The notes: a model not told the origin generated them from the letters alone. A stretch of 49,669 nucleotides of DNA from Verrucomicrobiota bacterium (GCA_027622665.1 JAQBYT010000032.1:1-49669); one strand, 5' to 3'; numbered from the stretch's first letter, positions 12,624 to 35,972 are shown. Program-made: numbers and translations.

Positions 12624-13544
12624 TCAGTTTTGAATAATATTCACTAGGGATTCGCTTAATTTCAAGCGAAGAGGCAATTCGGATACGGGCATCCAATTAT
12701 AGGACACGTCGCGTAGGGCGGCTTCATCCCGTATTTTGTTAAATAGAGCAAAGCTATCGGATTCGGAATGAACAAAGAGATTAAGGTAAAAAGCCTTCTT
12801 TACCGTACGGGCGGCATCTCGCACGGAGTTGAGAAACGCCTCGAGCTGTACGGCGTCATTGGGATCGATGCCTCGGGCTGGATCAACACCGACCTCTAGA
12901 CGCCCATCGGGCAGAGTACCCCAGTCAAGTCCGTCCTCGTTCTTGAAGATTCGACCTAGATTGAGGGTAAGCATAGGATAAAGTCGACCATGAGCGATAA
13001 CCACGGGCAGTTGCTCCTTTTGAGTGCCCTTAGCTTGAGGGAGGCTAACCTTCCGATAAGGTTTCTTTTTCAACTCTTGCGAAAGTTGCTGAAAAGAGAG
13101 GATGGTCTCGAGCCGGGTGATTTGCTCCTCGGAAGTGAGACGGTTTTCTTCAATCGTCAATTCGTCCGTGACTAGTTTTTTGAGACGAGTCGTGCTGCGA
13201 GTCGCCAAATCTTCCGCGGCGGCGCCATTTTCCTTCAATGCATCGACGTCGTCCTTCAAGTCAGCGATTTCCTTGCGGGCATCGTCCATTTCGTCTTCGA
13301 CGTCGGTGATGTCTTCCGCATGTTCATCCTCAAGATCCAAGAGGGAGTTCCGCAGTTGGTTGCGCTGCTCGATCAAGTCGGAACGATTATCATCGGTCTT
13401 GACGATTTTGTCGTACAGTTCCTGGCTCTTCTCATTAACGCTCAGCGCAAGAAGCAAGGCGATTAGGATAATCCCGCCGAACGTGTTGCAGAGAGTGTCG
13501 AGCAACATGTCTAGGCTTCCTGTACTTTCTTCTTCTCGGGCCAT
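12624..13544 (-). CDS. Single-TM coiled-coil protein, ExbD/MotB-like partner 2
   Basis: SLDMLLDTLCNTFGGIILIALLLAL places an Asp at the start of one TM helix, followed by a coiled coil and a C-terminal alpha/beta domain; lies downstream of a MotA/ExbB gene. Confidence 0.7.
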   Translation of the reverse strand: MAREEESTGSLDMLLDTLCNTFGGIILIALLLALSVNEKSQELYDKIVKTDDNRSDLIEQRNQLRNSLLDLEDEHAEDITDVEDEMDDARKEIADLKDDVDALKENGAAAEDLATRSTTRLKKLVTDELTIEENRLTSEEQITRLETILSFQQLSQELKKKPYRKVSLPQAKGTQKEQLPVVIAHGRLYPMLTLNLGRIFKNEDGLDWGTLPDGRLEVGVDPARGIDPNDAVQLEAFLNSVRDAARTVKKAFYLNLFVHSESDSFALFNKIRDEAALRDVSYNWMPVSELPLRLKLSESLVNIIQN

Positions 13545-13646
13545 AGTGTTATAAAATCAATCAATTAAAAAGGGAGTCTATGCTTATTAGACGCGGTATA
13601 AGCGAGTTTCTTAGAAAAAAGTGAATCTTTTTTAAATTATCCTGAA

Positions 13647-14690
13647 TTAGAGGTCCTTCAAAAGTGCTTCGAAGGTGTCGGGTTGCTTGTCGGTGAAGAG
13701 AAGAGCCGCTTCTTCGTGAATGGGTTCGAATCCGTATTTGAAACCCAATATTTTAGTCAAATTGTTCTTTGGGTCGCAAAGAAGCTTGTAGAGGTTCTTG
13801 CTAATCTGCCCCCCCCCTCGACCAGGTGCATTCACAATGGCCTTGCAGGCCGATGGGCGGAAAAAATACACGAAGAAGTGCTTACCTGGATCGTATTCTC
13901 TAAGAGCCTGTACGAGCGTCTTGGTATAGTCGGCGGCATTCACTTCATAGGTTTGCTGCTTGCCATTGAATTCACCAATAGTGAACTCGGTTCCACCGAG
14001 ACCGACCAAAACCGGTTTTTCCGCCGTATTGTTTTGTTGGGGAATGACCCTGACCTCGTTTTCGATTTGGGATTTGATCTGTTCGATTTGAGAATTGAGA
14101 TGGTTATCGAGTTCTTCTAGCTCAAGTTCACTCATCTCGGAAACCGTGCGCACGACTCGCGAATCGATCTGATCCTCCAATCCCTCTTCCTCTTTTTCGA
14201 GTTCCTCAATTCTGGCCTGAGCAATGTCGAGGTTCAGCTCGATCTTTTCGATTTTCTCCTTGATGAACTTCGTATCATTGGAATCCTCTATACCCAATTT
14301 GCGCTTTTCCCGCTCCAGATCGAGGTTCAGACGTTCCAATTCCTCGTTCAATACTTCCAAATCGCTGTTCTTTTCCTCAATCTGAACAAAGAAAGTCTTG
14401 TTGGCATCAACCATTTGCTGGTTTATCTCGGCAATTTCAGCAACGATCGCTGTGGCGCAGAAATCATCCACGACCACGGTGGCATTGCCTTCGCCCTCCC
14501 TTTTTCCCGTAATATGCTCGACGGGTGACAAAGCTTCGTCGGGATTGTCACCGGGGTCTTCCGACTCGGGATTTACTTGAAGAGCTAAAATAAGAGCAAT
14601 CAGAACCAAGATACCGATCACTGCCGTGATGATGTCTTGAAACGCGAAGAAGCTAACCTTCTCGTCGGAAACCCTTCCCCCTCTAGCCAT
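13647..14690 (-). CDS. Single-TM coiled-coil protein, ExbD/MotB-like partner 1
   Basis: SFFAFQDIITAVIGILVLIALILAL with an intramembrane Asp, long heptad region and C-terminal alpha/beta domain; directly follows the MotA/ExbB gene. Confidence 0.72.
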   Translation of the reverse strand: MARGGRVSDEKVSFFAFQDIITAVIGILVLIALILALQVNPESEDPGDNPDEALSPVEHITGKREGEGNATVVVDDFCATAIVAEIAEINQQMVDANKTFFVQIEEKNSDLEVLNEELERLNLDLEREKRKLGIEDSNDTKFIKEKIEKIELNLDIAQARIEELEKEEEGLEDQIDSRVVRTVSEMSELELEELDNHLNSQIEQIKSQIENEVRVIPQQNNTAEKPVLVGLGGTEFTIGEFNGKQQTYEVNAADYTKTLVQALREYDPGKHFFVYFFRPSACKAIVNAPGRGGGQISKNLYKLLCDPKNNLTKILGFKYGFEPIHEEAALLFTDKQPDTFEALLKDL

Positions 14691-14749
14691 GAATTAGATT
14701 AATTAAGTTTTGTCCAGGAAGCAAATAGACCACCAAGAATGACTTCGCT

Positions 14750-15754
14750 TTAGGCTCCTCCACGACGACCGCCGCTCTTTTCGAGTTTCAATTTGGCCAA
14801 AACGTAGGATTGGCAATATTCGTTGCACTCGTCCAACAAAAGAAATTCCTGCCGTTTGCGAAAGGTCATCACCATCTGAACGATAATCGAGGCAACCAAG
14901 CCAAGTAGGGTGGTGTCGAACGCAGTCGAAAGACCTCCGGTGACATCCGTCAGGGAGTCCTTGAGGGCTGTAATGTCCCCAGTATTCTGAATAGTGATGC
15001 CGAACTCACCGATGGCCGCGCCCAAACCTAGAACGGTTCCGATGAAACCAAGCACGGGAATCGCCCAGTTGAAACCGTTAATCAGACTGTAACTAGCCAA
15101 TACCTGATCCTCGTCAATGGATGCTTGAGCATTGGTCAAGCTAGCTACCTCGGAAATTTCACCAATGTTTTGCAAATTGGATAAGGCAACGTCGATCCGG
15201 TTGAGGAGAAGGTAATGCTTCGGATCATCCACTTGCCCCCTGATCCGCAACAGAGCGTCGCGAGCAGTGGCGTTGTTTAGGAAAAAGTTAGGATCCTGCG
15301 GTATCAGATTCAGAGTAAGGATCTTGCGCTGAAAACTCACCTTGCGCCCCTTTATGACGAGAATGGTGAGAGCCCAGAAGAAGAACATCATGATACCTGC
15401 AGCCATAACGTAACCGCCCATGCCTCGATTGATGAACTTGTCGGCAAAATCCTTATGAATGGGAATAGGTTTGGCTTTTGTCTGTGGAGTGCCGTCCTCC
15501 AGTAAGGCGGGGGTGCCGTCCTCCTGTAGTACGGGCACGTTGTTGTTTGCCTTCCACTCTTTATTCGTTCCCGTATCCCCGATGACAAATTCGAGAACCA
15601 CAAAAAACAAAGTGGTAAATATAAGTCCCACCAAGAATGTGAAAAAAGCGTTGGTGTCTGTAAAGCGCCCACCACTGAACCCGAGTTTCTGCTCGATGTC
15701 CTGTGTGGTCCAACTTAGTTCCGGTTCGTCAAATCCTACTCCGCTGTCAGCCAT
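14750..15754 (-). CDS. MotA/TolQ/ExbB proton-channel family protein
   Basis: WAIPVLGFIGTVLGL and GLSTAFDTTLLGL motifs; about four TM segments. Confidence 0.92.
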   Translation of the reverse strand: MADSGVGFDEPELSWTTQDIEQKLGFSGGRFTDTNAFFTFLVGLIFTTLFFVVLEFVIGDTGTNKEWKANNNVPVLQEDGTPALLEDGTPQTKAKPIPIHKDFADKFINRGMGGYVMAAGIMMFFFWALTILVIKGRKVSFQRKILTLNLIPQDPNFFLNNATARDALLRIRGQVDDPKHYLLLNRIDVALSNLQNIGEISEVASLTNAQASIDEDQVLASYSLINGFNWAIPVLGFIGTVLGLGAAIGEFGITIQNTGDITALKDSLTDVTGGLSTAFDTTLLGLVASIIVQMVMTFRKRQEFLLLDECNEYCQSYVLAKLKLEKSGGRRGGA

Positions 15755-15807
15755 AATTTTTCTGTTGGTTTAAGATGTAAATGTATCAATCGGTGGTGAA
15801 CGTCGGA

Positions 15808-16932
15808 TCAATCTTCGTTTTCTTCCGCATCTTCAGGTCCAGAAATTGCCATCGGATCATCCATAGGTTTTGCCCGAGCAACCGTGCCGCAAGCAAGGTC
15901 GTGCAAACCCTGGCGACGACGGGACACGAACACGATAAAGGGCAGGAGGATCGTAATGGCAAAAAGGCTCTTGAGAAGAGCTCGAGCGGATGCTCGACCG
16001 AATCCAATTTTCGAATGGTCTTGAGCGTTCACAATTTGAATTTTAGCGACTCGCTGACCAAGAGAGGCCATCGCCTTGGAAGACTCGGTCAGGGCGAAAT
16101 AAATCCAGCCTAGAATAGCAAGTACACCCCACATCGTAACCAGCTCCAAAAGCCAAAATCCCAAGTGGGCATTAGTGGCGACGAATGCAATGAGCCATAG
16201 AATACAAACCGCAACTCCTAGAATACCCCAATCGATCAAGGCCGCCAAGGCGCGCGGTCCGTGTTCGGCAAGGCCGGCCGTTTCGGGATCGTCCCCACCC
16301 TCGACTACAGTTAGAGGTTCGAATTCCCGTTGCTCTCTTGCGGGCTTGGCAGGTGCGGCCACGGGACCAGTGATCGATGGAGGAGCAGGTGGAGCTCCGA
16401 CAGGGGCGGGAGGAGGTTTTGGCGGAGGAGGAGCTGCGGCGCCGAGTCCCTTTATCCCATCCGAGATGCCGGGGATCGACGAAAGGGGCACCCACTCCGG
16501 AAGCCCTTGAAACCAAACCATGTCGGAAAAACGAAGATTACCACTCTTCAAATAGTCTTTGACCTCGGGGAGGAGATATGGCCCGAACGGTTGGCCCGAA
16601 CGGTTGACGCTGATCTCATCGGCAGGACCAGGTACGGGAACCTTGATCGGCTCGGGTTCAGGTTCGGGCTTCTTTTCCGCTTCGGCTGCCTTCTGAGCGA
16701 CGGAAGCTTCCTTTTCGATCTCCTCGAAATCCTTCTCGATGTTTTGCTCAGGCAGTTCTCCCTGTTCGTGCTTTTCTACGAAATCGCTGACGCTCATCCA
16801 GTCCTGTTTAACCTTAACCTTGTGAATGGTACTAATCGCCTTCTGGCGGAGTAGGTCGACTATCTCCAACGCAGTGTAAGGTCCTTCTTCCTTACCTCTC
16901 TTGGAAACAGTGTATTTTTCTTCGTAGCTCAT
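15808..16932 (-). CDS. GYF_2 (DUF4339)-like x2 plus RDD domain membrane protein
   Basis: GKEEGPYTALEIVDLL and GQPFGPYLLPEVKDYLKSGNL..VWFQGLPEW; poly-Pro linker; RDD motifs RALAALID, SLGQR and RQGLHD. Confidence 0.88.
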   Translation of the reverse strand: MSYEEKYTVSKRGKEEGPYTALEIVDLLRQKAISTIHKVKVKQDWMSVSDFVEKHEQGELPEQNIEKDFEEIEKEASVAQKAAEAEKKPEPEPEPIKVPVPGPADEISVNRSGQPFGPYLLPEVKDYLKSGNLRFSDMVWFQGLPEWVPLSSIPGISDGIKGLGAAAPPPPKPPPAPVGAPPAPPSITGPVAAPAKPAREQREFEPLTVVEGGDDPETAGLAEHGPRALAALIDWGILGVAVCILWLIAFVATNAHLGFWLLELVTMWGVLAILGWIYFALTESSKAMASLGQRVAKIQIVNAQDHSKIGFGRASARALLKSLFAITILLPFIVFVSRRRQGLHDLACGTVARAKPMDDPMAISGPEDAEENED

Positions 16933-16935
16933 GGT

Positions 16936-19900
16936 CTAATCTCCAAAGGCAAAGGGAAGGAGATCCTCCAGTCTACCAAATTGGCCGACCGGAACACCCG
17001 CTGCGGCATATGAGTTATTATACAACCGTGACAAATCCTTGTCAGTAGTCAGGAGCGGACTAAACGGGGCAACTCTAGACCCAGTGTCTCCCGAAATGGC
17101 ATTATTGGGAGCTATGCGCTGCAAAGCAAATCCCCCACCGGGAGGAGTTCCCATACCCCATGCATAAGCTGGGGGAGCACCTTCGAAATTCGGTTTTCCC
17201 GCTTGATCGACATAACCGACGTAACGAAAGTCAACGGTTGCCAGAGACTTGAGAAGACCACTATTGAATCGTGCCTCGGATGCGTATCCTCGCTTCTGCA
17301 GTTTTTGATAAAATATCGCCAAAGAGCCTTCCAATGCCTCGAAATTTTGACGGTTCATCCAATCGGTAGCCTTGAGGCGAGCTCCCGCCTTTTGCTTGAA
17401 GTCCTGATAATCGCTTACCATGTTTTTACTCAGGGCGGCACCCCACTCTCCCGGTCTTTTTAGCATCAATTCACAAATTTCAGCATGCAAAAAACCTTTG
17501 AATAGAGGCGAAAGCGTATTCTGGCTCATAACCAGATCGAGAAGATCGAGAAGAGGACCATCGACTGAACGAGTATTTTTATCGAGTCTACGCTCGAGCT
17601 GAAACTGAATGAAGTGAGACTCAGGAGCGAGCTGGCCTTGTTCCAGCATATGGCCTTTTACTCCACCATTGTATTCCAGAGATTCGAAAAGGCGACCTTG
17701 CGGCGTGCCGTTGAGTAAGAAGTTTCCTTGCTGAATGATTTGAACCGAGGGGTTCGGTATGGCTTGACCTTGATCGTCGAACTTTTTCTCGATTCGCTCC
17801 TCCTGCATTTGCCCAAAAGCCGTCAACATGGCGACAAGAGTTTTATTCGTGGTGTAACGCTTTAGCCCTCCGGCGTTACCGCCCAGTGAAACCGGCTGAC
17901 AGTCAACCAGCTTGTAATTCCAAACGTTACGCACGTTGCCCTCGGCTATAGCGGCCGCAAGATGATCATACTCGGCTCGAGAGTCCTCGGGGGAAAGACC
18001 GATTTTACCTTCCTTGATTTTTGCCCATAATTCATCAGGACCTTTAAATACGAGCTTTGTTTGCAACTGCCCCTTGTCGTTGTCAAAGAGAACCCGGTGC
18101 GTGGTAACGTCCCGTACCAGATTTAACGCGGCAGGATCAAACGCATTGGTTCGAAGTAATTGGTCCAGCTTGTTGAAGTATTCCGGCAAGCCTGAAGCAT
18201 TTCCGAACCCCGTCTTTGCCGCACCAGCCTCCCCTAGTTGCTTTAGCACTTCGCCGTGAACTTGCATCAAATCCCCAAGCCGACGAGTCTGGGACGAACT
18301 CAACTTCAGTTGATCAGTCGTCCCTCGATTAAGAGCAGTGACCGATTTCAACAATTCTCCCATTCGTCCAAGTTGCTCCCGGGCATCGGGAACGTTCCCA
18401 ACCTGTACAGCCCTTCCAATTTGATCGGCTTGATCCAAAAGTTCATCGACCTGCGATCCTTGATTGTTTTCAACTTCCTTGGAATAAGCTCGCCAAGTGC
18501 TGCGAAGCTTTCGCATGGCGTCCCGAACTCGCCCGTAATTTGAAGAATCAACCGACTTGGAGCCTGAAAACTCCTTGGTCGCTACATCCAGCTTGTCCAG
18601 ATAGTCTTCTTGAGCAAGGATACCATGATTCACCTTGGCAGAGGAACGAAATTCGCGAACTGCCTGCACGACCTGCTGGTCAAGCGATTGAATATCCTCT
18701 GCCAGCTTCCGGAAGCGGCTGAGTTCTCGACCCAAGCCATCTTCATTTTCGGCAACAGCACGGCCAATGTCGAGTAGGACTTCCGACTTCACGAGTTGTT
18801 CCTGAAACCGATAGTAATCGACCTCTTGGAGTGGCAAATCGTTTCCTTTTGCATCCTTTGGAGGAACTGGCGGATCAATAAACAATTGTTGAAATCTATC
18901 TGCATCCTTGGCTTCGAATTCGGGATCATCCGTAAGATCGGCTAACACATTTTCGCACATCTTTGTCACGACTGCCAATCGACGTTGCTTCAAGTCAGCG
19001 GGCTCGACGAAGGCTACCTTGAGGTTTTGAGTCGCAAGCAGAAATTTATCCTGCGACTTACCTCGGAAAACGCCCTTCTCGTGTGTGATGAGATTAATGG
19101 CACCCGAAAAGGCGTTGTCCGTAGCTTGCCTCAGGAGTATCTTGACTTCGTCGTCCTCAAGGTAATCACCATAGTTGCCGGCATAGGCGGAAAGCTTTTC
19201 CCACTGGCGAACAGGGGAAGGAGTTTGCACGATAATGTCGGCAGCGCTTCGGGCATCCCAATAACCCTTCAACCACCACAACAGGGTAACGGAACCCGCG
19301 GCCACCAAAACAAAAGCAAATACAGAGAAAATCCATAACCGTTTCGTCCGGCCCTGAAGACGTTTGATTCGATTTTTGACATGTCCCTCGGCCTTCTGAA
19401 GATCCATCAACACCTCGGTCGATACCGAATGGCCGATATCCTGAAACTCTTGGCGAATGCGCCTCAGTTCATTCTGTTCCTCAAGGTAGTTTTCCAAGGT
19501 CTTCTTTCCTATAACCTCAGCCTGTTGCATTTCGGCCACCCGGTTTTTGAAACGACCGACAAGGTTTTCCAACTCTCGTACAGCCCGTGCTTCATCGGCA
19601 AGTTCCTCGGCCCATTCCTTGTACTCATTGTAGACGTTTACATCATCGGGGTCGAGTTCGCCTTCGAGGTTATGTTCCTGAGCTAGCTCAAAAAATTCTC
19701 CGATCCAAGCAAGCGAACCCTTCCAGTCCTCCGATGACTTGAAGCTCGCCAACTCCACGAGAATTTCCTCCATTCGCAACTTAGCCAAACGTCGGTTCAC
19801 ATTCTCGCGTACGGCTAGAGCGTTTTCCCACTTGTCGCCCTTGGGCATAACTACCCAATCGGTTTCATCCACCTCCATCATGAGATCAAGAAATTCCGGT

Positions 19901-20436
19901 TCACGTCCCGCTTGAATCAGCTCGTCGATCTCGTCCATCTTCTTTTCGAGGATCTTAACGCTGAGCTGGCCGAAATGCCGACGAGCCGCAGCGTGGTCGG
20001 GGTTCGCCTTCAGGATCATCTTGAGAATCTTGAAGGTTTTCTCTTCGTCACGACTTCGGGCGGCCGTTCTGTATTCGCGAAAGAGCGGACTATCTTCCGA
20101 AATTTCCTTCTCGTACAGACCATTGAGCAGATCCACGTGATCCTCCGCCCAATTGGGTCCTAGGTATAGCGCCTTTTCCTCACAAAGTGACTTCCACTTT
20201 ACCTCGTTGGCAAAGGACAACTTCTCCATCAACAAAAGAACGTCGGGGGGCTGTTCGGCTAGTTCGCGTGCCGCAAAATCCTTACCAGAACGAATAAGCG
20301 TGACGCAATGGTCGAGACGTTCGTCTATCTTGGTTCGAAACTTTTCATACTCCTTGGCCAGAGAGTGCAAAACGGGGTCGGTGGCACCTTCACGAAGGGC
20401 CTTTTCTATGCGGTCGATTAGTCTATCAATATTCAC
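16936..20436 (-). CDS. Large bitopic membrane protein with helical N-terminal region and large C-terminal region
   Basis: 1166 aa ORF, GTG start, one TM (LWIFSVFAFVLVAAGSVTLLWWL) at about residue 370; 3-nt gap to the next gene. No family recognised. Confidence 0.8.
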   Translation of the reverse strand: MNIDRLIDRIEKALREGATDPVLHSLAKEYEKFRTKIDERLDHCVTLIRSGKDFAARELAEQPPDVLLLMEKLSFANEVKWKSLCEEKALYLGPNWAEDHVDLLNGLYEKEISEDSPLFREYRTAARSRDEEKTFKILKMILKANPDHAAARRHFGQLSVKILEKKMDEIDELIQAGREPEFLDLMMEVDETDWVVMPKGDKWENALAVRENVNRRLAKLRMEEILVELASFKSSEDWKGSLAWIGEFFELAQEHNLEGELDPDDVNVYNEYKEWAEELADEARAVRELENLVGRFKNRVAEMQQAEVIGKKTLENYLEEQNELRRIRQEFQDIGHSVSTEVLMDLQKAEGHVKNRIKRLQGRTKRLWIFSVFAFVLVAAGSVTLLWWLKGYWDARSAADIIVQTPSPVRQWEKLSAYAGNYGDYLEDDEVKILLRQATDNAFSGAINLITHEKGVFRGKSQDKFLLATQNLKVAFVEPADLKQRRLAVVTKMCENVLADLTDDPEFEAKDADRFQQLFIDPPVPPKDAKGNDLPLQEVDYYRFQEQLVKSEVLLDIGRAVAENEDGLGRELSRFRKLAEDIQSLDQQVVQAVREFRSSAKVNHGILAQEDYLDKLDVATKEFSGSKSVDSSNYGRVRDAMRKLRSTWRAYSKEVENNQGSQVDELLDQADQIGRAVQVGNVPDAREQLGRMGELLKSVTALNRGTTDQLKLSSSQTRRLGDLMQVHGEVLKQLGEAGAAKTGFGNASGLPEYFNKLDQLLRTNAFDPAALNLVRDVTTHRVLFDNDKGQLQTKLVFKGPDELWAKIKEGKIGLSPEDSRAEYDHLAAAIAEGNVRNVWNYKLVDCQPVSLGGNAGGLKRYTTNKTLVAMLTAFGQMQEERIEKKFDDQGQAIPNPSVQIIQQGNFLLNGTPQGRLFESLEYNGGVKGHMLEQGQLAPESHFIQFQLERRLDKNTRSVDGPLLDLLDLVMSQNTLSPLFKGFLHAEICELMLKRPGEWGAALSKNMVSDYQDFKQKAGARLKATDWMNRQNFEALEGSLAIFYQKLQKRGYASEARFNSGLLKSLATVDFRYVGYVDQAGKPNFEGAPPAYAWGMGTPPGGGFALQRIAPNNAISGDTGSRVAPFSPLLTTDKDLSRLYNNSYAAAGVPVGQFGRLEDLLPFAFGD

Positions 20437-20474
20437 GGCATTGGAGGAAGATAATCTATCAATAATGAATCAGT

Positions 20475-23400
20475 TCAACGGAAAGTGACAAGGTCGGAAA
20501 CGCGATCCCAGGTTGCGGGAAGGCGAGCCGCAGGCGGATTAATCTTAAATAGCGCTAGAGCCCATTTTTCTGCGACTAAGCGTTCCCTTGCTTGCTGGAT
20601 CTGGCTGCCACCGGCACGAAATGCGGCATCGCGGGCAGCCTTCAACTCGATAAATTTTGCATTCATACGCTTAAGCCATTGATCGTACTGAGACAGTTTT
20701 GCTCGTTCCTGACCAAACCGAGCTACTGAAGGAGCATCCGACATAAGCTTCAAGGCCTTCGAATATTCCTGCCAGACGAGCTTGTCGGATTGAGTGGATT
20801 CGGACGCATGCTCCAAGTATGCTTTATTCAACTTCATGAATTTTTGGCCAACTTCTTTTCCTTTCGGCTGCTCTCCCATACGCAAGATTTCTTTTTGAAG
20901 TTTTCCAAGCAATCCTTTGTCGGGTTCCGGGGAATCGAAGGAGTCCAAAACTTTCTGCAATTGTACGGCCAAGTTCGTATCCTTCATCCCGAAAGTTCTC
21001 TCAACGTGCATAAAGAAATTCACCAAGTGAAAAGCAATGTCCACGTCATGATCGGCCCGTTCCGCATCATATCGAAAACCATCCATGTGAAGTTCCGCTT
21101 TTTCCTTTAGTGCGGAAGCTGCCGTTTGCCAAAATTGACCAAGAGCTTGCTCGTTTGCATGAAAACTTTGGGGATCGCTCAAACCAATTAGCTTTTTCCG
21201 AAACGTTTTAGTTTGAGGATCATCCAATCCCAATGTTTGCTGAGCAAAATTGGTTGTTACACCAAGCAAGTATTCGCCATAAGAAGAACCTGCTGAATAA
21301 TCGGTCGACTTCGCAGCATTACGACCGAACATACGCAGGTTGTCGTATACTTGGGGATTGGGCAAGGTCGCCGACATTTTTTCCATTTCCGCATCATACT
21401 GAGCTATTCCCGACCGAAAGGAAGCGTCAAGAGAGGCAAAATACTCGACGTTCATCATGATCTCGCTGATTGGTTGCGGCCCCTGTTTTGGTATGACGAT
21501 CGCTTTAGGAAAACCCGGAACGTACCCCATCACAAAAGCATTTGTGGACGGCATGCTTGGGGAGAAAAACACATCCGAACGTGGAGTTCCGCCTGCACCT
21601 AAAGCAGGAGCCAATCCCAGGGAATGCGAAACATTCTTGCCTTTGGTCAAGACATGGAAATTTTGTCCATAAGGCCATGACGGGAGAAACCTCAACGCTG
21701 AGCGGGAAAGCTTCAACTGCTCGCCTCTGGCGACCGGCGGGTGACCGAGTTCCGGGGCGAAATGCTTATTTGAAACAAAATATAAATCCACACAATTGTC
21801 AGCCCCTTTGGGGATGCGAAGAACAAACCCACGCTTGGCGGCATCATTTGCCATATCTGCCGAAAAGTCGATTTCTACAGACACTCCCCTTTTGACCGTA
21901 AATTCCAACGAATAAAGAGAGCGACTGCCACCCACGGTCTTCAAACTAAAGCGCGCCTGACTGTCCGGATCGACCCGATCGGGTGTGGCTTCAACGGCAA
22001 AAGCCTCAAAAGCATCCGCTGCTTCCGCAAGATTGTAAAAGGATTGAGGTCCGTGGAAATCCGTCTGCCAAACACGAGCTTGCTCGACGCCCACAAAGGC
22101 TCTCATGAGAGCGTCAAAAAGGCTCGAAAACTCTGGTTGCTCGTATCGGATCGATCCGCTACTCGGAAGATCAAGCTGCCAACGTACGGGTTTACCCGGC
22201 AAGGTTTTGCCCGGCAACCACAAGACGTAAGCGGATTCCGGCGTTCGAACCAAGGGACCCGAAGGATCGAGTCCCACTGGAACAACAGAGACAGGAGCGG
22301 CAGGAAGGGTGAAATCCAGAGCAGTGATTATGTTTCCGTCTACACGCGCATTAAGCTTCAAGTCCTTCCCTCCCGCTGCTAAAAAGGCAACCAAGTCAAG
22401 AATGCGTTTTTCTTCGTCGACACGAAAAGTGTAAGGCAGTGAACGGACGCCACCTACATTGATTTCAACGATTCCCTGGGCGGGCAAAATGCGTGCGGCG
22501 TCCGGGGCATTCAGTACTACGACCCTCGATTCGCCCGTCGGTTCGGGCCGTACCGGAGGAACTGAACCGATGCCAACTGGTGGAATAGTTATGGGATCGA
22601 CACCTACAATGCGCCCTTCTTCCAAGCGAAGTTTCAAGGGAACTTCCATGCTGGGATTTTCAGTTAAAGCCACTACTAACTGCTCTATTTGCTCACGGAG
22701 GTCAGGGCGGTCGGATGGAAGCTCAAAAGTGAGTTTCCCCTTTGAGGGAATATTGAAAGTGGCGATGTCTCCATCCAAACTAACTGCGTTTTCTCCTGAG
22801 ATATTTTCTTCAAACGGTTCGCCCATCGCTTGCACCGCGGGGGCTTCGTCCAAAGTCTCTATGGCCAACCAGCCGGCCTCGTTCCGCACTACGGTAACTT
22901 GCAGCTGGTCGTCAGGTGCGAGACCTTCGAGCAAATCGCCGTAATCGTCCTGCTGTTGTTCAGTTAGATTAATCTTTACGGGTTCGGAACTGCCTGCATC
23001 CAACTTAATCCAGTTCATGTATTTATGCTTTTCCCTCAACACGACTACCCCGGGCTTGCCCACCATCAAAGTAGCCCCTTCGACCACTGGTTCCCCATCG
23101 GAGGAATCGGGAGTGAGGTCAGGAACTGGAGAAACAATGGAAGGGTTGGACGGATCGGGTTCATCCCCGTTTTTATTGAGGACATCGCCCAGATTATAAA
23201 CTAAACCGACAACCAAACCTACAAGCAAACAAAGGGCCGTCGAAATAACCGCCAACTGCATGAGCCAAGGACGTTTTTTTCGCTTTTTACCAGTAGAGGA
23301 TCCATCCTGAGCGGAAACGGTGGAACCCGAAGGTGCGGCCGATGCCGTATAACTGGACGCCGCTTGCTGGAACCGAACCATTTCGCGATCGGAAAACGCC

Positions 23401-24257
23401 TTTGGAGCCTTTGCCCTAGTTTTCGGGGATTTGGCTCCGGATGCTTTCGCCTTGGGGCCCTTGCGAGCAATGTGAGCAAGATCGTCGTCGATAGGGTCAA
23501 CAACCTTGCTCTGAGCAAAATCGCGAAGATCCAAGTAGTTGGGGGCACCTCCTAGCTTAATGCGCTCGGCGGCAGGTTGCCCGCGGGCTCCGATCCAAGA
23601 GAAAATCTTGGCGTCATCGTTTTCTTGCAGAAAGGTGGTAAAAGAATAGTCCCAAGAATCAAGCGACAATTTGTGCAGGGCGGACGACTCGGCGAACAGC
23701 TTGAGAAGACTTTCCTCTTGTCCGGGATGCACCTCCAGCAGCACGGGCTTTTTCATGCTCGGCGAAACGAGAATTGCGGCGTTTCCGGGATCGTTTGTAG
23801 CGGCAAGCCAAGCGTTGGCAGGAATGAGAGCGAGAGACTTAAACGGGGTAAGGTCGACCTCCTCCGAATCCTCGAGATAGCGCGGTCCTTCCTCCCATTT
23901 GGTTTTCCAGCCATTCCAATTAGCAAGAATTTCAGCGGGGGATGGAACAGTTGCAATCTCGAAGCTGTCGAGAATGAGGTGGTGGGCAATGTAATTGGTA
24001 CGATTCGTGTAGTCGAGGCCGGCATCACTGATTCGACTGACGACAAAAAACTCCTCCGAACCCAATGCCAGTTTTCGAAAGACAGCGACTTTGGCCTTGG
24101 GACCATCGCCTTGCTGATTGTAGTCGTAGACACTGAGCCGCTCCAGTTCACGGACTAGTCGACTGCGTATATCCTTGTGACGAGCAACCGTGCAATACCC
24201 CGACCTCCCGGGCTCCAAGCCTTGAGGGGCACTGGTGAAGATCAGTTGGCGGGCCAT
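20475..24257 (-). CDS. GTPase-associated protein 1 type (GAP1-N2 + GAP1-M-like) bitopic membrane protein
   Basis: QLIFTSAPQGLEPGRSGYCTVA...LERLSVY...GLDYTNRTNYIAHHL is the GAP1-N2 pattern and WDYSFTT resembles GAP1-M. One TM follows KKRKKRP, then a large ectodomain. Adjacent to the GTPase. Confidence 0.8.
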   Translation of the reverse strand: MARQLIFTSAPQGLEPGRSGYCTVARHKDIRSRLVRELERLSVYDYNQQGDGPKAKVAVFRKLALGSEEFFVVSRISDAGLDYTNRTNYIAHHLILDSFEIATVPSPAEILANWNGWKTKWEEGPRYLEDSEEVDLTPFKSLALIPANAWLAATNDPGNAAILVSPSMKKPVLLEVHPGQEESLLKLFAESSALHKLSLDSWDYSFTTFLQENDDAKIFSWIGARGQPAAERIKLGGAPNYLDLRDFAQSKVVDPIDDDLAHIARKGPKAKASGAKSPKTRAKAPKAFSDREMVRFQQAASSYTASAAPSGSTVSAQDGSSTGKKRKKRPWLMQLAVISTALCLLVGLVVGLVYNLGDVLNKNGDEPDPSNPSIVSPVPDLTPDSSDGEPVVEGATLMVGKPGVVVLREKHKYMNWIKLDAGSSEPVKINLTEQQQDDYGDLLEGLAPDDQLQVTVVRNEAGWLAIETLDEAPAVQAMGEPFEENISGENAVSLDGDIATFNIPSKGKLTFELPSDRPDLREQIEQLVVALTENPSMEVPLKLRLEEGRIVGVDPITIPPVGIGSVPPVRPEPTGESRVVVLNAPDAARILPAQGIVEINVGGVRSLPYTFRVDEEKRILDLVAFLAAGGKDLKLNARVDGNIITALDFTLPAAPVSVVPVGLDPSGPLVRTPESAYVLWLPGKTLPGKPVRWQLDLPSSGSIRYEQPEFSSLFDALMRAFVGVEQARVWQTDFHGPQSFYNLAEAADAFEAFAVEATPDRVDPDSQARFSLKTVGGSRSLYSLEFTVKRGVSVEIDFSADMANDAAKRGFVLRIPKGADNCVDLYFVSNKHFAPELGHPPVARGEQLKLSRSALRFLPSWPYGQNFHVLTKGKNVSHSLGLAPALGAGGTPRSDVFFSPSMPSTNAFVMGYVPGFPKAIVIPKQGPQPISEIMMNVEYFASLDASFRSGIAQYDAEMEKMSATLPNPQVYDNLRMFGRNAAKSTDYSAGSSYGEYLLGVTTNFAQQTLGLDDPQTKTFRKKLIGLSDPQSFHANEQALGQFWQTAASALKEKAELHMDGFRYDAERADHDVDIAFHLVNFFMHVERTFGMKDTNLAVQLQKVLDSFDSPEPDKGLLGKLQKEILRMGEQPKGKEVGQKFMKLNKAYLEHASESTQSDKLVWQEYSKALKLMSDAPSVARFGQERAKLSQYDQWLKRMNAKFIELKAARDAAFRAGGSQIQQARERLVAEKWALALFKINPPAARLPATWDRVSDLVTFR

Positions 24258-24287
24258 GACTTGGCTGGTGGTCTGCCGTTAACGGCT

Positions 24288-26069
24288 CTAAACCGGTTCG
24301 GGTACCGGTATCAATTCAGGTTCGACTTGCGAAAGAGCCCAGATAGTGGGAACTTCGACCATCACAGGGTCCAACTTCTCGGGATCGGGAGCAATGAATT
24401 CTTGATCGCCATTTTTGTAGGTGATCGGGCTATGTCCAAAAGCGCTTACGGGGAAATAGCGAACATTTCTCGAAAGCGTTTCAGCATTCGCCACTATTCC
24501 GGGATGCATATCGATCATATAATCTCGGATAATCTCGGAATTGGAATCAATTATTTCTTTAATCAATTTTTTATCTTTTATCGGCCACTGGATACGTTCC
24601 CAATCCAATTGATCTTTTAGAATATCGCATTTGCCGATCATAACGGCAAGTGGGACATCGATTTTGTCGGCGATACTGATATTCTGGTGCTGCTTCACCC
24701 GGACCTCCAACTCGGCCATGATAATGTCTTGCTGGTCGAGGCGTTTGCCCTTTTTATCAAGGGCGAATTGGGGGTCGTCATGACCACGCAACATCCGCCG
24801 AAACTCGGGACTGGCTATCGGGTCGAAGAGGAAGAAGATGCCCGAGGAACTGGCGACGTGAAGGGTGCCGGGAGATTCCTCGTTGGCGATTCCCGGTTCA
24901 AAATGCTCACCCGCGTTGTCGTAAAAGATAATGGAACAATCATGCCCACCACCTCGAGGGTCGGAAAGACTGAAAACAAAGGGCTTAGGCAGAGCAACCA
25001 CGCGGTCGTGACGCTCCAACCGCTCGTACATTTCGCCCTCCAACTGTGTCTTTATCAGCATGGATTCCGCAGGATCCGTTCCGGCGAAAAGGCGATTCTT
25101 CATAGAATTCAGGATCGCGTTAAAAGCAGGATCGGCATCACGGAAGGCGATCCCGAATTCACGAAACATCGTGCGCTGAAGTTGCCGTACCAAAACGCTC
25201 AAATAATAAGATTTCCCTGCACTGGGCGCCCCCACTATCGAAAAAATATGGTGCGTGACGTCCATGAATCCAGGAGGCAACTTATGATGACAGTGTGGGC
25301 AAGCGACATCTGTGGTGGGCAAACCCATGGCGTCCATGGCTTGTCCCTTAGAGTTGAACTCGGTCGGGATGAAACGGAGCATGGCATCCTCGCCAAGTTT
25401 ACGATCTCCCCGCAAGTCTTCGTGCGTTGCCATACTAAGGACATCGGAACGATCAAACCTCAACCAGCAGATTGGGCATGTGAATTCACCTCGATCCGGA
25501 TCAACGACGATCTCTTCCTCGTAAATGGCTTCCTCTTCTTCCTCTTCTTCTTCGAGTTGGAGAAAATCAAGTAGGTGCACCACCCAAAAGGGAACATCCA
25601 AGCCCATCGGTTTGATTGCGCATTCAGCGACGTCTGTGCCGGACTCACGGATCATGTCGATAACCTCGTATCGACCACACTGTCCGAGTTCCATTCCGCT
25701 ACGACCGTTCGTCAAAACCCATTGCCCCTTCTGGATTTGATCCGCCCAAGACTTGGGATCCCGACCGACAAAGACAACCAAAGGATAACCAGTAAACTGC
25801 AACGCGCAAACCTCCTCTTCCTCCACTGTAAAGGGCTCAGTAAAAGGCCCACCGTTCACCAGTAGGCGCTCGTCCCCCTTCTTGTTGGGAACGATTCGAA
25901 AATGGTTGCCCATCTTCTTGATCATGCATGCCCCTTCCCATTCGTCGGAACAAGGCACTTGCCAATCGGCATTCCCAAGACAACCAACGATGAAAGGAAA
26001 TTTTTCCATAATCTGGAATCGCCCTTCCAGACAGTCATACAATCCAATGGTATTTTTCTTTCCTAGCAC
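24288..26069 (-). CDS. TRAFAC-class GTPase (DO-GTPase2-like) with degenerate FHA-like N-terminus and Zn ribbon
   Basis: G1 GAPSAGKS, G3 YDNAGE, G4-like GKCD, G5-like VSAFG; CPICW...CPHCH; poly-Glu linker; beta-rich N-terminus with LLVNG. Confidence 0.82.
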   Translation of the reverse strand: MLGKKNTIGLYDCLEGRFQIMEKFPFIVGCLGNADWQVPCSDEWEGACMIKKMGNHFRIVPNKKGDERLLVNGGPFTEPFTVEEEEVCALQFTGYPLVVFVGRDPKSWADQIQKGQWVLTNGRSGMELGQCGRYEVIDMIRESGTDVAECAIKPMGLDVPFWVVHLLDFLQLEEEEEEEEAIYEEEIVVDPDRGEFTCPICWLRFDRSDVLSMATHEDLRGDRKLGEDAMLRFIPTEFNSKGQAMDAMGLPTTDVACPHCHHKLPPGFMDVTHHIFSIVGAPSAGKSYYLSVLVRQLQRTMFREFGIAFRDADPAFNAILNSMKNRLFAGTDPAESMLIKTQLEGEMYERLERHDRVVALPKPFVFSLSDPRGGGHDCSIIFYDNAGEHFEPGIANEESPGTLHVASSSGIFFLFDPIASPEFRRMLRGHDDPQFALDKKGKRLDQQDIIMAELEVRVKQHQNISIADKIDVPLAVMIGKCDILKDQLDWERIQWPIKDKKLIKEIIDSNSEIIRDYMIDMHPGIVANAETLSRNVRYFPVSAFGHSPITYKNGDQEFIAPDPEKLDPVMVEVPTIWALSQVEPELIPVPEPV

Positions 26070-26430: not shown

Positions 26431-27153
26431 TCAAAATGTAGTGCCTTCGGACTCCTCCAAATCGTCAAGTCTCTTGGCTACGTTTTGGAGAAGGCGATCC
26501 TCTTCATTCAGCATCTGCGTAAGCTTTTTGAGTCGACTTCGTTGACCCACCAAGCCCTTTTTACCAACAACCCGACTCTCCAGATTAGCCACCAGTTTTT
26601 CCAGTGAAAACACGGCATTCTGAAGTTCCTCGTCCAAGGTCTTCACCTCTTCCTCCATTCGCCGACGCCCTTCCGTATCGGAACTCGAGTTCGACAAGGT
26701 TTTTCTGAGGCGCATCCCTTTCTCAATTTCCGTAACGATGTCTTCGTAAGCCTGCACCACAAGTTCCTGCGTATCCCCAAGACTGGAGACACCGGAAAGC
26801 ATACCCTCAACCACGCGGGAACGACAGGCTAACGCCCGTTCATATATCTGAGCATAAGCTCCTAACCCCTTGGCCACAAGGCTTTGGGAAAATGCTTTCT
26901 GCTTCTCTAGGCGTTCCTTTTCTCGCTTTTTAAGAGCATCGGCGGCGAACATTTTCTTAAGCCGCGACCATTTGCTCGCCCACAAGCCTCCCATAACTCC
27001 GGCGGCAGCTCCAAAACCCAATAAAGCGGCCCAGCCGGGCATGGGAACAAAGGCGTAGACACCCGCTGCAGGCAGAAGGGGAACCCAAGTTACCGGAGAC
27101 CAAAGGAGTTCCTTGAGCAACCTCCCCTTGAAACTTTCCTCCCTCTCGCTCAC
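26431..27153 (-). CDS. Two-TM coiled-coil membrane protein
   Basis: The ORF-track start (27330) overlaps the upstream gene; the in-frame GTG at 27153 is more plausible. Hydrophobic hairpin followed by a helical C-terminus. Confidence 0.7.
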   Translation of the reverse strand: MSEREESFKGRLLKELLWSPVTWVPLLPAAGVYAFVPMPGWAALLGFGAAAGVMGGLWASKWSRLKKMFAADALKKREKERLEKQKAFSQSLVAKGLGAYAQIYERALACRSRVVEGMLSGVSSLGDTQELVVQAYEDIVTEIEKGMRLRKTLSNSSSDTEGRRRMEEEVKTLDEELQNAVFSLEKLVANLESRVVGKKGLVGQRSRLKKLTQMLNEEDRLLQNVAKRLDDLEESEGTTF

Positions 27154-27175
27154 AACGGCAAAAACTGAAAGGCTT

Positions 27176-28738
27176 TCAGGGAGTGATCCCAGCGGAATTA
27201 ACTTTGGCGTCGTGGACGAGGAAGACTTTTGCCAAACGACATCTACGCTTCCAGGCTCGACTACCTTCGCCGGGATATTGTTGTGGCAAATTCGTACTGC
27301 CCAAGCCCTCGGCAAAAATACGGTTTTCATTTATGCTACAAACACCAACCAAGTACCCTTTAATGGACAAAGCACGCTCGCTGGAGAGAGCCAAGTCCAC
27401 TGCCGAATCGGTTCCCGGACTGACGTTTGCCTGTATAACTATGCGGTGGTTCGGGTAATGGGCTAGCTTGCCAGAGGCCGCTCTTAGCTTATCCCTAAAC
27501 TCATCCGAAAGAACGGCTTGTCCCGATCCAAAAATCACTGGCTCATCGATAAAAGTTCCTGTAATTCGACCTTTGACTCCGTTCCACTGCTCCAGCGACA
27601 ATGGGGGGAAATAGCCGCTTACGTATCCCTTGGTCGCGTAACGATGAACGGCTTCCACTTCCTTAGCAGAGGCGATTTCCTTAATGGGGTCACTGTTGAC
27701 AAAACTGTAAAAACTACCGCCTGCGGGCGGTGAAGACAAGTCGCCCACGTCACGACAAATTTTATGGATGCGTTCAATGCCCTCAACCAACTTGGGCAAG
27801 GCTCCACTCTGCAAACCAAACCACTCCTCGGCATTCTCCTTGAGTGTGATGAATCGTATCCCGGCCAACATCCCGGCGGCAACGTCTGACGACTCACCGG
27901 AGTAAGCAGCCGCCAAGGCCTCGAACTCGGCGGGGCGGTTAAGATAGTAATGCAGGGCTCGAAAGTACGCCTTGGTCAACTCCTTGATCACCTCTGGTTC
28001 CTTAACCAAGGTCTTTCGAGAAGCCACCGCGACGTCGAGAATAACTCCTCTGGCCTGTGTTGTATCAAGCACCACCTTGGCCCCTGAAATCTGATCAACC
28101 GCTTGTGATACAAATGGTTCCCAAAGAACGGCAAAATCAGCCTTCCCCTCTTTGAAGCGGCTAAACGCTTCCGCGCTGTTTTCCGCTCGAAAGGAAGCTA
28201 CCTTGGCCTTGGCATTCTCCAGTTTGAAATGAGAGATGCTCGACTTAAGCAGAAACTCGGATGGAGAAAAACCCACCAATGAACCGCGAATACCTTTCTC
28301 GTCCAAGTCGTCCAAGGTGTTTACCTTTGGACCACCGACAATGGCGTCTCCGCCAAAAGACTCGTCGATCAAGAACACGATCGCACCCGGATAACCAGCA
28401 CCTTGACCGTTGGTCAGGTAACTGTCGATCGTGATAGTGGCCAGGTCGCACTTTCCCGAATCCAATCCCGCCACGCGTTCCTCGAAGTCAAATACGTTCT
28501 CGTACCGAATACCCAGATTTTTTTCCTTCAAGTATTCCTGCATCGCTCGAGACTTGAAGATAAGGTAACCGAGCCAATCGTCTCCCCACACGGTAATAAC
28601 GCGGTCGAAATCGACGGCGTCACTGCTTTGCAAGAGCAGCTCCTCGCGCTTTTTTTCCTTCCTCCCCGTCTCAGTCCATTTCCACGCAACCAAGCCCACG
28701 ATGACCAGCAGGCAGAAGATGGTGAGGGCTTTCTTCAT
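27176..28738 (-). CDS. SsuA/NMT1-type substrate-binding domain fused to a C-terminal OmpA-like domain
   Basis: N-terminal anchor; DDWLGY, IDESFGGDAIV and AVLWEPFVS; C-terminal VIFGSGQAVL...LSSERALSIKGYL...RIFAEGLGS. Confidence 0.85.
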   Translation of the reverse strand: MKKALTIFCLLVIVGLVAWKWTETGRKEKKREELLLQSSDAVDFDRVITVWGDDWLGYLIFKSRAMQEYLKEKNLGIRYENVFDFEERVAGLDSGKCDLATITIDSYLTNGQGAGYPGAIVFLIDESFGGDAIVGGPKVNTLDDLDEKGIRGSLVGFSPSEFLLKSSISHFKLENAKAKVASFRAENSAEAFSRFKEGKADFAVLWEPFVSQAVDQISGAKVVLDTTQARGVILDVAVASRKTLVKEPEVIKELTKAYFRALHYYLNRPAEFEALAAAYSGESSDVAAGMLAGIRFITLKENAEEWFGLQSGALPKLVEGIERIHKICRDVGDLSSPPAGGSFYSFVNSDPIKEIASAKEVEAVHRYATKGYVSGYFPPLSLEQWNGVKGRITGTFIDEPVIFGSGQAVLSDEFRDKLRAASGKLAHYPNHRIVIQANVSPGTDSAVDLALSSERALSIKGYLVGVCSINENRIFAEGLGSTNLPQQYPGEGSRAWKRRCRLAKVFLVHDAKVNSAGITP

Positions 28739-28770
28739 AATTCAACTTCAGAATATTCGAATCTCCGCAT

Positions 28771-29637
28771 TCAAGGGCTAACCGCTCTTTTTGCAACAAA
28801 TACTAGAACAAAGATACCAACTACGACAACCAGTACGATTCCTACCTGACTGTCTTCCTCCTCCGGAATTGAACCGTAACCCTCTTCGCCCTCCGCTCCG
28901 TCATGAGAGGTTCGAACCTCCTTACCCAAGGGTAATGCGGATACTCGGGCCATAGCTTTTTCTTCTTCGGCAGAGATGCGAAACTCGATATCCAACGGTA
29001 CCTCGGCATCAACGTTCGCAAGCGAGCGTTGCAACTCCTCGCGATTGTTCGCCGCAACAAAATGAGTGGCAAACCCGTCCAAGTAGTCTCCTTGACCATG
29101 AAAACCGATACCGAACACCTCGACACCTTCCATGCGCAATTTCGAAACCATTTCACAAACCGCAGGATTTCCACCGGGATGCTTAGTTTCATGACCATCG
29201 GTCAAGAGTATCAACAAATGACGCTCGTAAGGCGTCACCGTCTCTCGCCGTTTATTGATCATCTTAAAAGCCCTTTCCAACGTTGCGACGATTGGCGTCA
29301 TCCCCCCGACTCGAAGTTTGTCCACGGCTTTCAATACCTGACTCTCACCGTTCTTCACGAATTCGACGTCCAAAGAACGCCTGTTCATTGGGAGAAAACA
29401 CCAGGCGTTGTTAGGCTCGGCTTTCTCCAACCACCAGCGAAAGGCTTGCTTCGCTTGACTTAACTTTCCTCCTTCCATGCTTCCGGAGTCATCAAAAATA
29501 ATGGTGTAGGCTGTACCCGTCTGCGAAGCGAACTCCGCATCCAGTTCAGAAAACTCGGAATCCTGGGCGAAGATCGCATTAAAGATAAGACAGTTGGCGA
29601 TGACGAAAAGGACAAGCAATGATGATAGATTCTTCAT
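28771..29637 (-). CDS. vWA domain protein with signal peptide and C-terminal TM anchor
   Basis: MIDAS motifs IIFDDSGSM, GMTP and LLTDG; C-terminal GIVLVVVVGIFVLVFVAKR. Confidence 0.9.
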   Translation of the reverse strand: MKNLSSLLVLFVIANCLIFNAIFAQDSEFSELDAEFASQTGTAYTIIFDDSGSMEGGKLSQAKQAFRWWLEKAEPNNAWCFLPMNRRSLDVEFVKNGESQVLKAVDKLRVGGMTPIVATLERAFKMINKRRETVTPYERHLLILLTDGHETKHPGGNPAVCEMVSKLRMEGVEVFGIGFHGQGDYLDGFATHFVAANNREELQRSLANVDAEVPLDIEFRISAEEEKAMARVSALPLGKEVRTSHDGAEGEEGYGSIPEEEDSQVGIVLVVVVGIFVLVFVAKRAVSP

Positions 29638-29682
29638 GATGTGTTACTCCTATGATTGGGGATGGATGAATGGCCACGAAAC

Positions 29683-33173: not shown

Positions 33174-33195
33174 TTTACCAGCTCACGCTCCCGGG

Positions 33196-33951: not shown

Positions 33952-34023
33952 GGCCTTATCCTTTGGTTGAAGATTGAGAAATTAGTGTATTAAAAATGCT
34001 TAAGATTTAAAAAGTCCATTCGG

Positions 34024-35936: not shown

Positions 35937-35972
35937 TAAAAGTTTTGTGAGATCTGTTCGGGCAAACGGTCC

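Follow-up and report, generated by a model that had tools for sequence, protein, structure and literature searches.

The subject of this study is a group of seven genes at positions 12,624-26,069 of a 49,669-nucleotide (nt) window, that is, the whole stretch JAQBYT010000032.1:1-49669 from Verrucomicrobiota bacterium (GCA_027622665.1), which genetically couple a GTPase switch, itself a prediction, with a MotA/ExbB-type motor of a distinct kind; the coupling is real, conserved and apparently unpublished. ORF calling in the window placed all seven open reading frames (ORFs) on the minus strand and in one direction, bearing out the original prediction of tightly spaced, co-directional genes at 12624..26069. 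In the order in which they are read, they encode a DO-GTPase2-type TRAFAC GTPase (24288..26069; 593 amino acids (aa); Pfam PF19993), the GAP1 protein (20475..24257; 1260 aa; PF20013, GAP1-N2), the bitopic protein P1166 as the third core gene (16936..20436; 1166 aa; no Pfam family above the cut-off), a membrane protein of the form GYF-GYF-(Pro-rich linker)-RDD (15808..16932; 374 aa; Pfam GYF_2 and RDD), the MotA/TolQ/ExbB-family motor A subunit, here MotA (14750..15754; 334 aa; PF01618), and two B subunits, B1 (13647..14690; 347 aa; membrane Asp D19) and B2 (12624..13544; 306 aa; membrane Asp D16), neither of which has a Pfam family above the cut-off. The gaps between them are, in the same order, 30, 38, 3, 53, 59 and 102 nt, and the borders of the operon are wider (361 nt upstream, 284 nt downstream). 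The ratio of nonsynonymous to synonymous substitution (dN/dS) against the nearest complete relative (L005) is 0.02-0.23 across all seven genes, which means strong purifying selection in every one of them, and we therefore regard them as real, selected genes. A promoter and terminator scan stayed at chance level (18 against 12.9 and 24 against 22.1). The closest relatives, at 95-98% MotA identity, are assigned to Opitutales, Opitutia or Puniceicoccaceae, and the RNA runs that contain the operon stretch are marine.

The GTPase matches PF19993 (DO-GTPase2) at 29 bits against a cut-off of 27 (expectation value (E) 1e-6), as do 44 of the 48 aligned rows, and its homologues include planctomycete proteins. 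The residues of its G1 (GAPSAGKS), G3 (DNAGE) and G4 (GKCD) motifs are unchanged in all 48 rows, as are the Glu after Walker B (E388, within DNAGE) and the four cysteines of a single zinc ribbon (C198, C201, C257 and C260). Its N-terminus, approximately aa 1-105, is a degenerate FHA-like domain according to an iterative profile that recruited rows positive for Pfam FHA, and the segment at approximately aa 106-170 is GYF-like by pattern only, with no match from the GYF profile built on related loci; Pfam itself finds FHA in 8/48 and GYF in 17/48 GTPase homologues. The GAP1-N2 assignment made in the original prediction holds for the protein encoded 30 nt downstream (PF20013, E 1e-22 at aa 1-130), whereas the GAP1-M domain named alongside it was undetected in the window protein, being found in 25 of 51 aligned homologues; GAP1-C likewise gave no hit in the window protein and 0/51 among the homologues. 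A cytoplasmic GAP1-N2 module (aa 1-270) is followed by one membrane helix (335-353), a Pro-rich linker and an extracytoplasmic part of about 900 aa. Basic residues stand just before the membrane helix in both GAP1 and P1166, so that the N-terminus of each is probably inside. No other region of the operon diverges as fast as the extracytoplasmic part of GAP1: in relatives that keep 82-85% identity in the GTPase domain and about 80% in MotA, P1166 falls to about 41% in its outer part, and the outer segments of GAP1 fall to about 20-33% or cannot be aligned. The peak of dN/dS also lies there (0.14-0.23), with no positive selection. In one very close relative (L004, 1755-5268), the first outer segment of GAP1 is shorter by some 90-100 residues (coverage of aa 395-660, 61%). 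Internal repeats at GAP1 aa 400-655 were considered and are unsupported, since 24, 209 and 123 of 500 shuffles reached the respective scores.

P1166 has a helical cytoplasmic part (1-360), one membrane helix (367-385), a helical periplasmic rod and a beta-hairpin domain near 838-931. Its AlphaFold2 model (mean predicted local distance difference test score (pLDDT) 84, predicted template modelling score (pTM) 0.47) is nearly all alpha, and a fold search with that model returned only weak helical-repeat matches with template modelling scores (TM-scores) of about 0.1 and nothing convincing; the Atlas clusters to which P1166 belongs are unnamed and mostly from Verrucomicrobiota. The protein occupies the position held by a fibronectin type III (FNIII) repeat protein in published GAP1-N2 systems. 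Neither Pfam, applied to all seven proteins, nor the P1166 model contained an FNIII domain, with the outer part of GAP1 lying outside the modelling, and scores for P1166 regions gave no clear split between loci with and without the motor. In the 374-aa protein, the first GYF domain (aa 5-56) was missed by Pfam and recovered by the profile from related loci (E 5e-9). This slot is variable across loci, holding GYF with RDD, TM2, DUF4190 or trypsin domains or nothing at all, as in L064, L072 and L086, where no gene lies between P1166 and MotA; a GYF domain is nevertheless present somewhere in 21 of 22 motor-linked loci.

The last three genes make up the motor trio. MotA matches PF01618 (MotA_ExbB; E 5e-9, 36.5 bits against a cut-off of 22.9) and has four membrane helices; compared by sequence with solved structures, its profile found no match at E 0.01. 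Two threonines, T240 and T282, presumably the counterparts of those in ExbB/TolQ, are kept in 57/57 rows, and an N-terminal motif, L.W...D.E...G....(K/R)(F/Y)T, occurs in the clade linked to the GTPase core and is missing from 11 stand-alone paralogues. B1 and B2 are full-length paralogues of each other (hhalign probability 99.7), each with a single hydrophobic helix (19-37 in B1, 18-36 in B2) and a membrane Asp (D19 in 48/48 rows of B1, D16 in 48/52 rows of B2). Pfam, the related-loci profile and the conservation of helices and residues thus agree with the original prediction of a MotA/ExbB protein, a GYF-GYF-RDD protein and two Asp-bearing partners with single membrane helices. B1 consists of a membrane helix, a long coiled-coil stalk and an alpha/beta head. 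In the AlphaFold2 model of B2 (pLDDT 84.6), one helix of 111 residues (H50-160), about 16 nm at 0.15 nm per residue, precedes an alpha/beta head that ends strand-helix-strand-helix-strand. Neither B2 as a whole nor its head matched a Pfam family, and no OmpA-like or MotB-plug domain was found in them. The B2 model had no Foldseek match at E 0.001, VIA-align returned only coiled coils, leaving the head barely tested, and the B2 profile likewise met only coiled coils among solved structures. An Atlas search with the head led to unnamed, mostly planctomycete clusters (under 0.9), which we treat as a lead only. A complex prediction combining MotA (8-326), P1166 (1-395) and GAP1 (1-268) scored 0.00 against a mark of 0.32, a result that is uninformative either way.

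The coupling recurs in other genomes. Gene order is preserved to the contig limits in all 32 related loci, including one from Verrucomicrobiales at 39% MotA identity. Across a phylum sample of 401 Verrucomicrobiota genomes, GAP1-N2 occurs in 54 genomes and 64 places, of which 57 loci were examined once this genome, four contig-end places and two places under the cut-off had been set aside. The three-gene core of GTPase, GAP1 and P1166 was found in 39/57, the other 18 being without a full core by the profiles used, and MotA, B1 and B2 lie directly behind the core in 21/57, always all three and never a subset. The locus profiles derive from these same loci, so that their scores are circular; the adjacency is not. 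In the reverse direction, searching the 401 genomes with the MotA profile yielded 30 matches that scored over 300 bits (the next at 254, then 213 and lower), and 28 of the 30 adjoin a core gene, the other two standing alone. Those 28 comprise 22 behind a whole core (this genome counted), five with P1166 upstream on short or broken contigs and one with an inverted P1166. Compared by hand, GAP1-N2 is present in 28/30 genomes with a MotA match above 300 bits and in 26/371 others. Metagenomes offered a further set of 56 loci at 41-48% identity, many of them near kin, after 24 closer ones of 80 had been excluded: B1 and B2 were present in 33/33 with 2 kb downstream, and a same-strand core gene in 25/28 with 2.5 kb upstream. 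The co-occurrence of the trio with GTPase and GAP1 genes in other genomes, on which the original prediction depended, was thus found from both sides. Because the set recurs across Verrucomicrobiota, the seven genes are probably one unstudied envelope machine.

The same comparison bears on whether the two halves are merely neighbours, that is, two separate modules co-transcribed through co-regulation or descent and without physical coupling. Each module does exist without the other, and in one genome (G262) they are apart, core and trio being on different contigs (L096, L201) with other genes intervening. Adjacency nonetheless persists down to about 30% GTPase identity and through loss or exchange of the GYF gene, stop and start codons of neighbouring genes often overlap across loci, and two inversions (L155/L157 and L207) flipped core and trio to opposite strands yet left them side by side. 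We consider mere co-transcription unlikely. On a GTPase tree of 52 rows (seven short loci uncounted), presence of the motor can be explained by 7 changes, where shuffled labels require 15, and loci with the motor are found to either side of the deepest split, which, as far as sequence can tell, fits an old GTPase-motor association with losses or exchanges. The MotA tree places 39 linked and five stand-alone rows on one side and the 11 stand-alone paralogues on the other. Tree-distance correlations over 23 loci are high (rho 0.80 for GTPase-MotA, 0.85 for GTPase-P1166 and 0.89 for MotA-P1166; reached by 0/999 permutations), a concordance that, at the level of sequence, shows shared descent and not contact.

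Paralogous trios without a GTPase exist, one of them in this very genome (L232, 5424-8619, on contig C47 of G000), where a MotA paralogue is accompanied by two coiled-coil B genes, and the motor was therefore probably recruited from a wider family of the Planctomycetes-Verrucomicrobia-Chlamydiae (PVC) group. In the C47 trio, the B1-like subunit is without the membrane Asp and the B2-like subunit has it. Several related A subunits (L209-L215) begin with a CxxC zinc-ribbon-like segment, and one locus (L144, 10851-14613) carries two tandem B1-B2 pairs behind a single MotA, with three P1166-like genes upstream. The slot behind the core can also be filled differently: in five loci of one family (L067, L071, L076, L082 and L085), the motor-less core is followed by a gene of about 610 aa with a PilM/FtsA-like actin fold and then two small genes, with an AAA ATPase in three of the loci and a short GAP1 lacking the membrane helix. 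Given these alternatives, the slot fits a force-generating or envelope-spanning module.

Two more conventional roles for a motor of this family can be considered against the same evidence. One is that of a regulated energiser of uptake or export, Ton-like, in which GAP1 or P1166 would act as the TonB and pull on an unlinked outer-membrane receptor or secretin upon polymer binding. The A subunit does belong to the ExbB/TolQ family, the GAP1 membrane helix is followed by a Pro-rich linker, and three stand-alone paralogous A subunits lie near secretin or NHL-repeat genes: a distant MotA paralogue sits upstream of a GspD-like secretin gene in L217 (2352-8232), and NHL-repeat genes come after those in L218 and L219. 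This role is nonetheless quite unlikely, as no TonB_C, receptor or secretin gene lies in or consistently beside the operon, the candidate helices carry no conserved polar residue, and the genome, with 11 MotA_ExbB matches in all, has ten ordinary ExbD genes away from the operon. The other is that of a surplus stator of the flagellum, or of one more Tol or Ton motor of the ordinary kind, placed here by chance. The genome is flagellated, as well as rich in MotA_ExbB matches, so that the absence of flagellar genes noted in the original prediction is correct for the operon and not for the organism, whose MotA_N/MotB_plug stator pair sits in a flagellar cluster on contig C3. The operon MotA has no MotA_N, B1 and B2 have no plug, OmpA or ExbD matches, and the linkage to the GTPase core is phylum-wide, all of which makes a stray stator extremely improbable. 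Fourteen matches to the flagellin N-terminal family were seen on several contigs of the genome, some in ORFs of 800-1070 aa.

What surrounds the operon is less constant. Beyond its downstream end lie P884 (9685..12339, minus strand; 884 aa), a membrane-anchored protein with immunoglobulin-like (Ig-like) and TSP3 repeats, P631 (7727-9622, minus strand; 631 aa), a membrane protein with squalene-hopene-cyclase-like repeats, and P313 (6779-7720). All three are flanking rather than core genes: they are syntenic with the operon in marine Opitutales only, and they were excluded as core by 0 tblastn matches in 134 distant loci. P884 has Gly/Asp-rich repeats and a DxSxS-like motif, from which a von Willebrand factor A (vWA) domain was suspected but not shown; it has the highest RNA-contig depth in all four runs, a measure that cannot rank genes. 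Paralogues of P631 occur on contigs C3, C30 and C65. On the other side, minus-strand genes at 26431-37001 encode, co-directionally, an ATP-binding cassette (ABC) substrate-binding protein, permease and ATPase, PspA, an AAA ATPase, a 605-aa protein, a vWA protein, an NMT1-OmpA fusion and a 299-aa protein. This cluster resembles the PspA, AAA, ABC and PBPB-OmpA operon described in the available part of bioRxiv 10.1101/2020.09.24.301986, and it was excluded as part of the system because it stands beside the operon in only 1 of 11 relatives fetched.

A further explanation, which we regard as rather doubtful, is an anti-invader system. In it, a phage or an attacker acting by contact would be sensed by GAP1 through its outer part, the GTPase would set the threshold, and the trio would serve as effector arm, either by opening and so depolarising the membrane or by recruiting effectors in the manner of the Zorya motor. 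PMC7159879 predicts that GAP1-N2 systems, whose components vary and are often tied to membranes, function in conflicts. The spread is patchy, with GAP1-N2 in 54/401 genomes and the GTPase in 18/36 genomes of the same family and 0/13 of one genus; the latter has small genomes, however, so that loss by streamlining accounts for part of the patchiness. In its favour are also the GAP1 outer part, which outpaces the rest of the operon in divergence, and the exchange of modules in the slot after the core, but dN/dS is far below 1 even in that outer part, the trees are concordant and the flanks stable, and neither a plasmid search with the GTPase nor a viral-contig search with MotA gave a match. MotA has weak matches to ZorA (E 2.5e-8), yet these are limited to generic membrane helices and lie far under the PADLOC/NCBIfam cut-offs; no other defence model fits, none coming near its cut-off. 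An Mrr nuclease follows B2 in 2/44 loci, whereas no nuclease, toxin or ZorC/D/E-like gene is found among the seven.

The interpretation that we develop here is that of one GTPase-gated, ion-driven motor doing mechanical work in the envelope, to which we give an even chance. Several observations weigh against it. The trio is dispensable, being missing from 15 of 36 cores with at least 5 kb downstream (three further motor-less cores had less room), the linked MotA clade includes five stand-alone members, and related trios, that on C47 included, occur without the GTPase. The order of strands and helices in the B head resembles that in ExbD; compared by hhalign with 16 ExbD rows, however, the B heads reached a probability below 1%, the same as controls, and the Pfam ExbD family does not match B1 or B2. 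As the profile comparison is not significant, the label 'ExbD-like' rests on gene position and the membrane Asp. The membrane helices of GAP1 and P1166 are without any conserved polar residue of the type of the His in the TonB/TolA membrane helix. The GAP1 membrane helix is present in 22/22 motor loci against 16/27 others, but the seven short GAP1 proteins without it form a single clade; more generally, kin are not independent, and matching trees among them show shared descent only. No outer-membrane or substrate gene is conserved beside the operon: among 63 loci with B2, 47 have a same-strand ORF nearby, and the 44 scanned hold vWA in 7/44, ankyrin and the Mrr nuclease in 2/44 each, and in others FRG or none. 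Contigs from four RNA libraries of four studies overlie parts of all seven genes and bridge four junctions singly, although such contigs can neither rule out DNA nor demonstrate one transcript. Taken with purifying selection, stable Opitutales flanks and the absence of plasmid or viral matches in our searches, the RNA contigs fit a standing cellular machine. The claim that a GTPase switch is linked to an ion motor is sustained as phylum-wide genetic linkage, the trio being an optional and not a fixed part.

How such a machine might operate can be sketched from these parts. Switch and scaffold, located at the inner membrane, would consist of the zinc-ribbon GTPase together with the parts of GAP1 and P1166 that face the cytoplasm, a head in the former and a helical region in the latter. 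MotA would be the outer ring and B1 with B2 a heterodimeric axle, whose membrane Asp, going by what is known of the family, would carry the ion. Since no domain for binding the cell wall can be recognised in B1 or B2, and the coiled-coil stalk of each is long, the B1-B2 stalk is most likely a drive shaft or push-rod reaching into the periplasm, with the scaffold keeping the ring in place, an arrangement that follows the proposal for GldLM and not the one for MotAB. A ligand bound at the fast-diverging outer part of GAP1 could alter which nucleotide the GTPase holds, whereupon contacts of GYF/FHA type might dock or release the motor, by analogy with MglA and GltJ in their action on AglRQS. The output may be to deploy, move or remodel a surface or membrane structure upon contact with a cell, particle or polymer. 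Going further, it is conceivable, if tentative, that the operon represents an undescribed class of ion-driven rotary motor. Two different B subunits would make up its coiled-coil shaft, and its own zinc-ribbon GTPase would switch it directly upon a signal from an exchangeable extracytoplasmic sensor. Such a motor would be one of several 'power modules' that can replace each other in an envelope machine general to the PVC group (the alternative being PilM-like actin and AAA ATPase), and it could power a process at the envelope or surface that is set off by contact and has no known motor in Verrucomicrobiota and Planctomycetota.

With every use known for MotA/ExbB-type motors, in flagella, Ton, Tol, Agl-Glt and Zorya, an important part of bacterial cell biology was defined. 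Were this operon another, with B subunits built in their own way and a GTPase dedicated to it, motors of this type would gain a new context, and that in a phylum which is abundant and little studied. For the DO-GTPase/GAP1 family, two Asp, two Thr and one P-loop provide a concrete handle on whether these proteins constitute a defence switch or a standing envelope machine.

Comparison with known systems places the operon between several of them. It shares the MotA/ExbB-family membrane helices and the weak ZorA profile matches with Zorya, a system whose hallmarks are the long tail of ZorA, an OmpA-like ZorB and ZorC/D/E. Unlike ZorAB, the operon has a MotA of 334 aa without the long tail (ZorA models span 383-1063 positions), no OmpA-like ZorB and no ZorC/D/E. 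It likewise differs from the flagellar stator MotAB in having no MotA_N, no MotB plug or wall-binding domain and no flagellar context. With the 5:2 motors ExbBD, TolQR, MotAB and GldLM, as treated in the available text of PMC9389320, it has in common the family of the A subunit, the membrane Asp of B and the A-B gene order, and its long periplasmic shaft is comparable to the 18 nm of GldM, whose shaft is discussed there together with the problem of motor anchoring. In contrast to those motors, it has no TonB, TolA/TolB/Pal, FliG or Gld partner, and no match to ExbD, OmpA or plug could be detected in its B heads; Ton/Tol families were found neither in the 33 window proteins, save one unlinked OmpA-domain fusion, nor in the 44 genes scanned after B2.

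On the side of the switch, the pair of GTPase and GAP1-N2 was defined computationally, with a predicted role in conflict, by Kaur, Burroughs, Iyer and Aravind in 2020 (PMC7159879). In the sections of that paper available to us, the systems resemble ours in the zinc-ribbon TRAFAC GTPase with Glu after Walker B (the ribbons being usually two there), the GAP1-N2 gene directly downstream, the GAP1 membrane helix and the occurrence in verrucomicrobia; they also include genes for a GYF pair joined to trypsin or to a membrane region, found beside GAP1-N2 systems in planctomycetes. They differ from the operon as its third component is a helical bitopic protein in place of FNIII repeats, and as it has a module of MotA/ExbB and two B subunits with no tubulin, Hsp70 or kinase theme. 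Because no FNIII component was found, we describe the operon as a variant sharing two core components of GAP1-N2 systems. A count of the words 'MotA', 'ExbB' and 'TolQ' in the main text of PMC7159879 gives 0 for each, although the paper's figures or source data may show such neighbourhoods. In the literature covered, with subscription papers mostly outside it, we found no paper on the combination of GTPase/GAP1 and motor and no experimental test of the family, and term searches found no mention of the combination in PMC12283558, PMC12505986, bioRxiv 10.64898/2026.10.26.761892 and 10.64898/2026.10.19.760177, or the supplement of PMC11135422. No characterised system was named as a match by PADLOC, NCBIfam or this literature.

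The nearest parallel in the literature is the Agl-Glt system of Myxococcus xanthus, in which, according to the available parts of PMC11761067 and PMC11135422, ZnR, GYF and FHA domains are the means by which a GTPase governs a ring of TolQ type together with the AglQ-AglS heterodimer. Like Agl-Glt (AglR, AglQ and AglS; GltJ; MglA), the operon combines one TolQ-type A subunit with two different B subunits under GTPase control (PMC11761067), together with GYF, FHA and zinc-ribbon domains on the cytoplasmic side and bitopic partners (PMC11761067, PMC11135422). NCBIfam gliding models come nowhere near their cut-offs among ten proteins (the GltJ model at 18 bits against 450). Unlike Agl-Glt, as far as those texts describe it, the operon encodes a GTPase of a different family (DO-GTPase2, not MglA-type), its B subunits have long coiled-coil stalks, and it is without TonB-C domains or the outer-membrane Glt complex (GltA-K). 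The novelty suggested for the combination has to be narrowed: a GTPase-run TolQ-type motor with two B subunits and GYF domains is already known from Agl-Glt (PMC11761067), and what is apparently new here is this motor on this switch.

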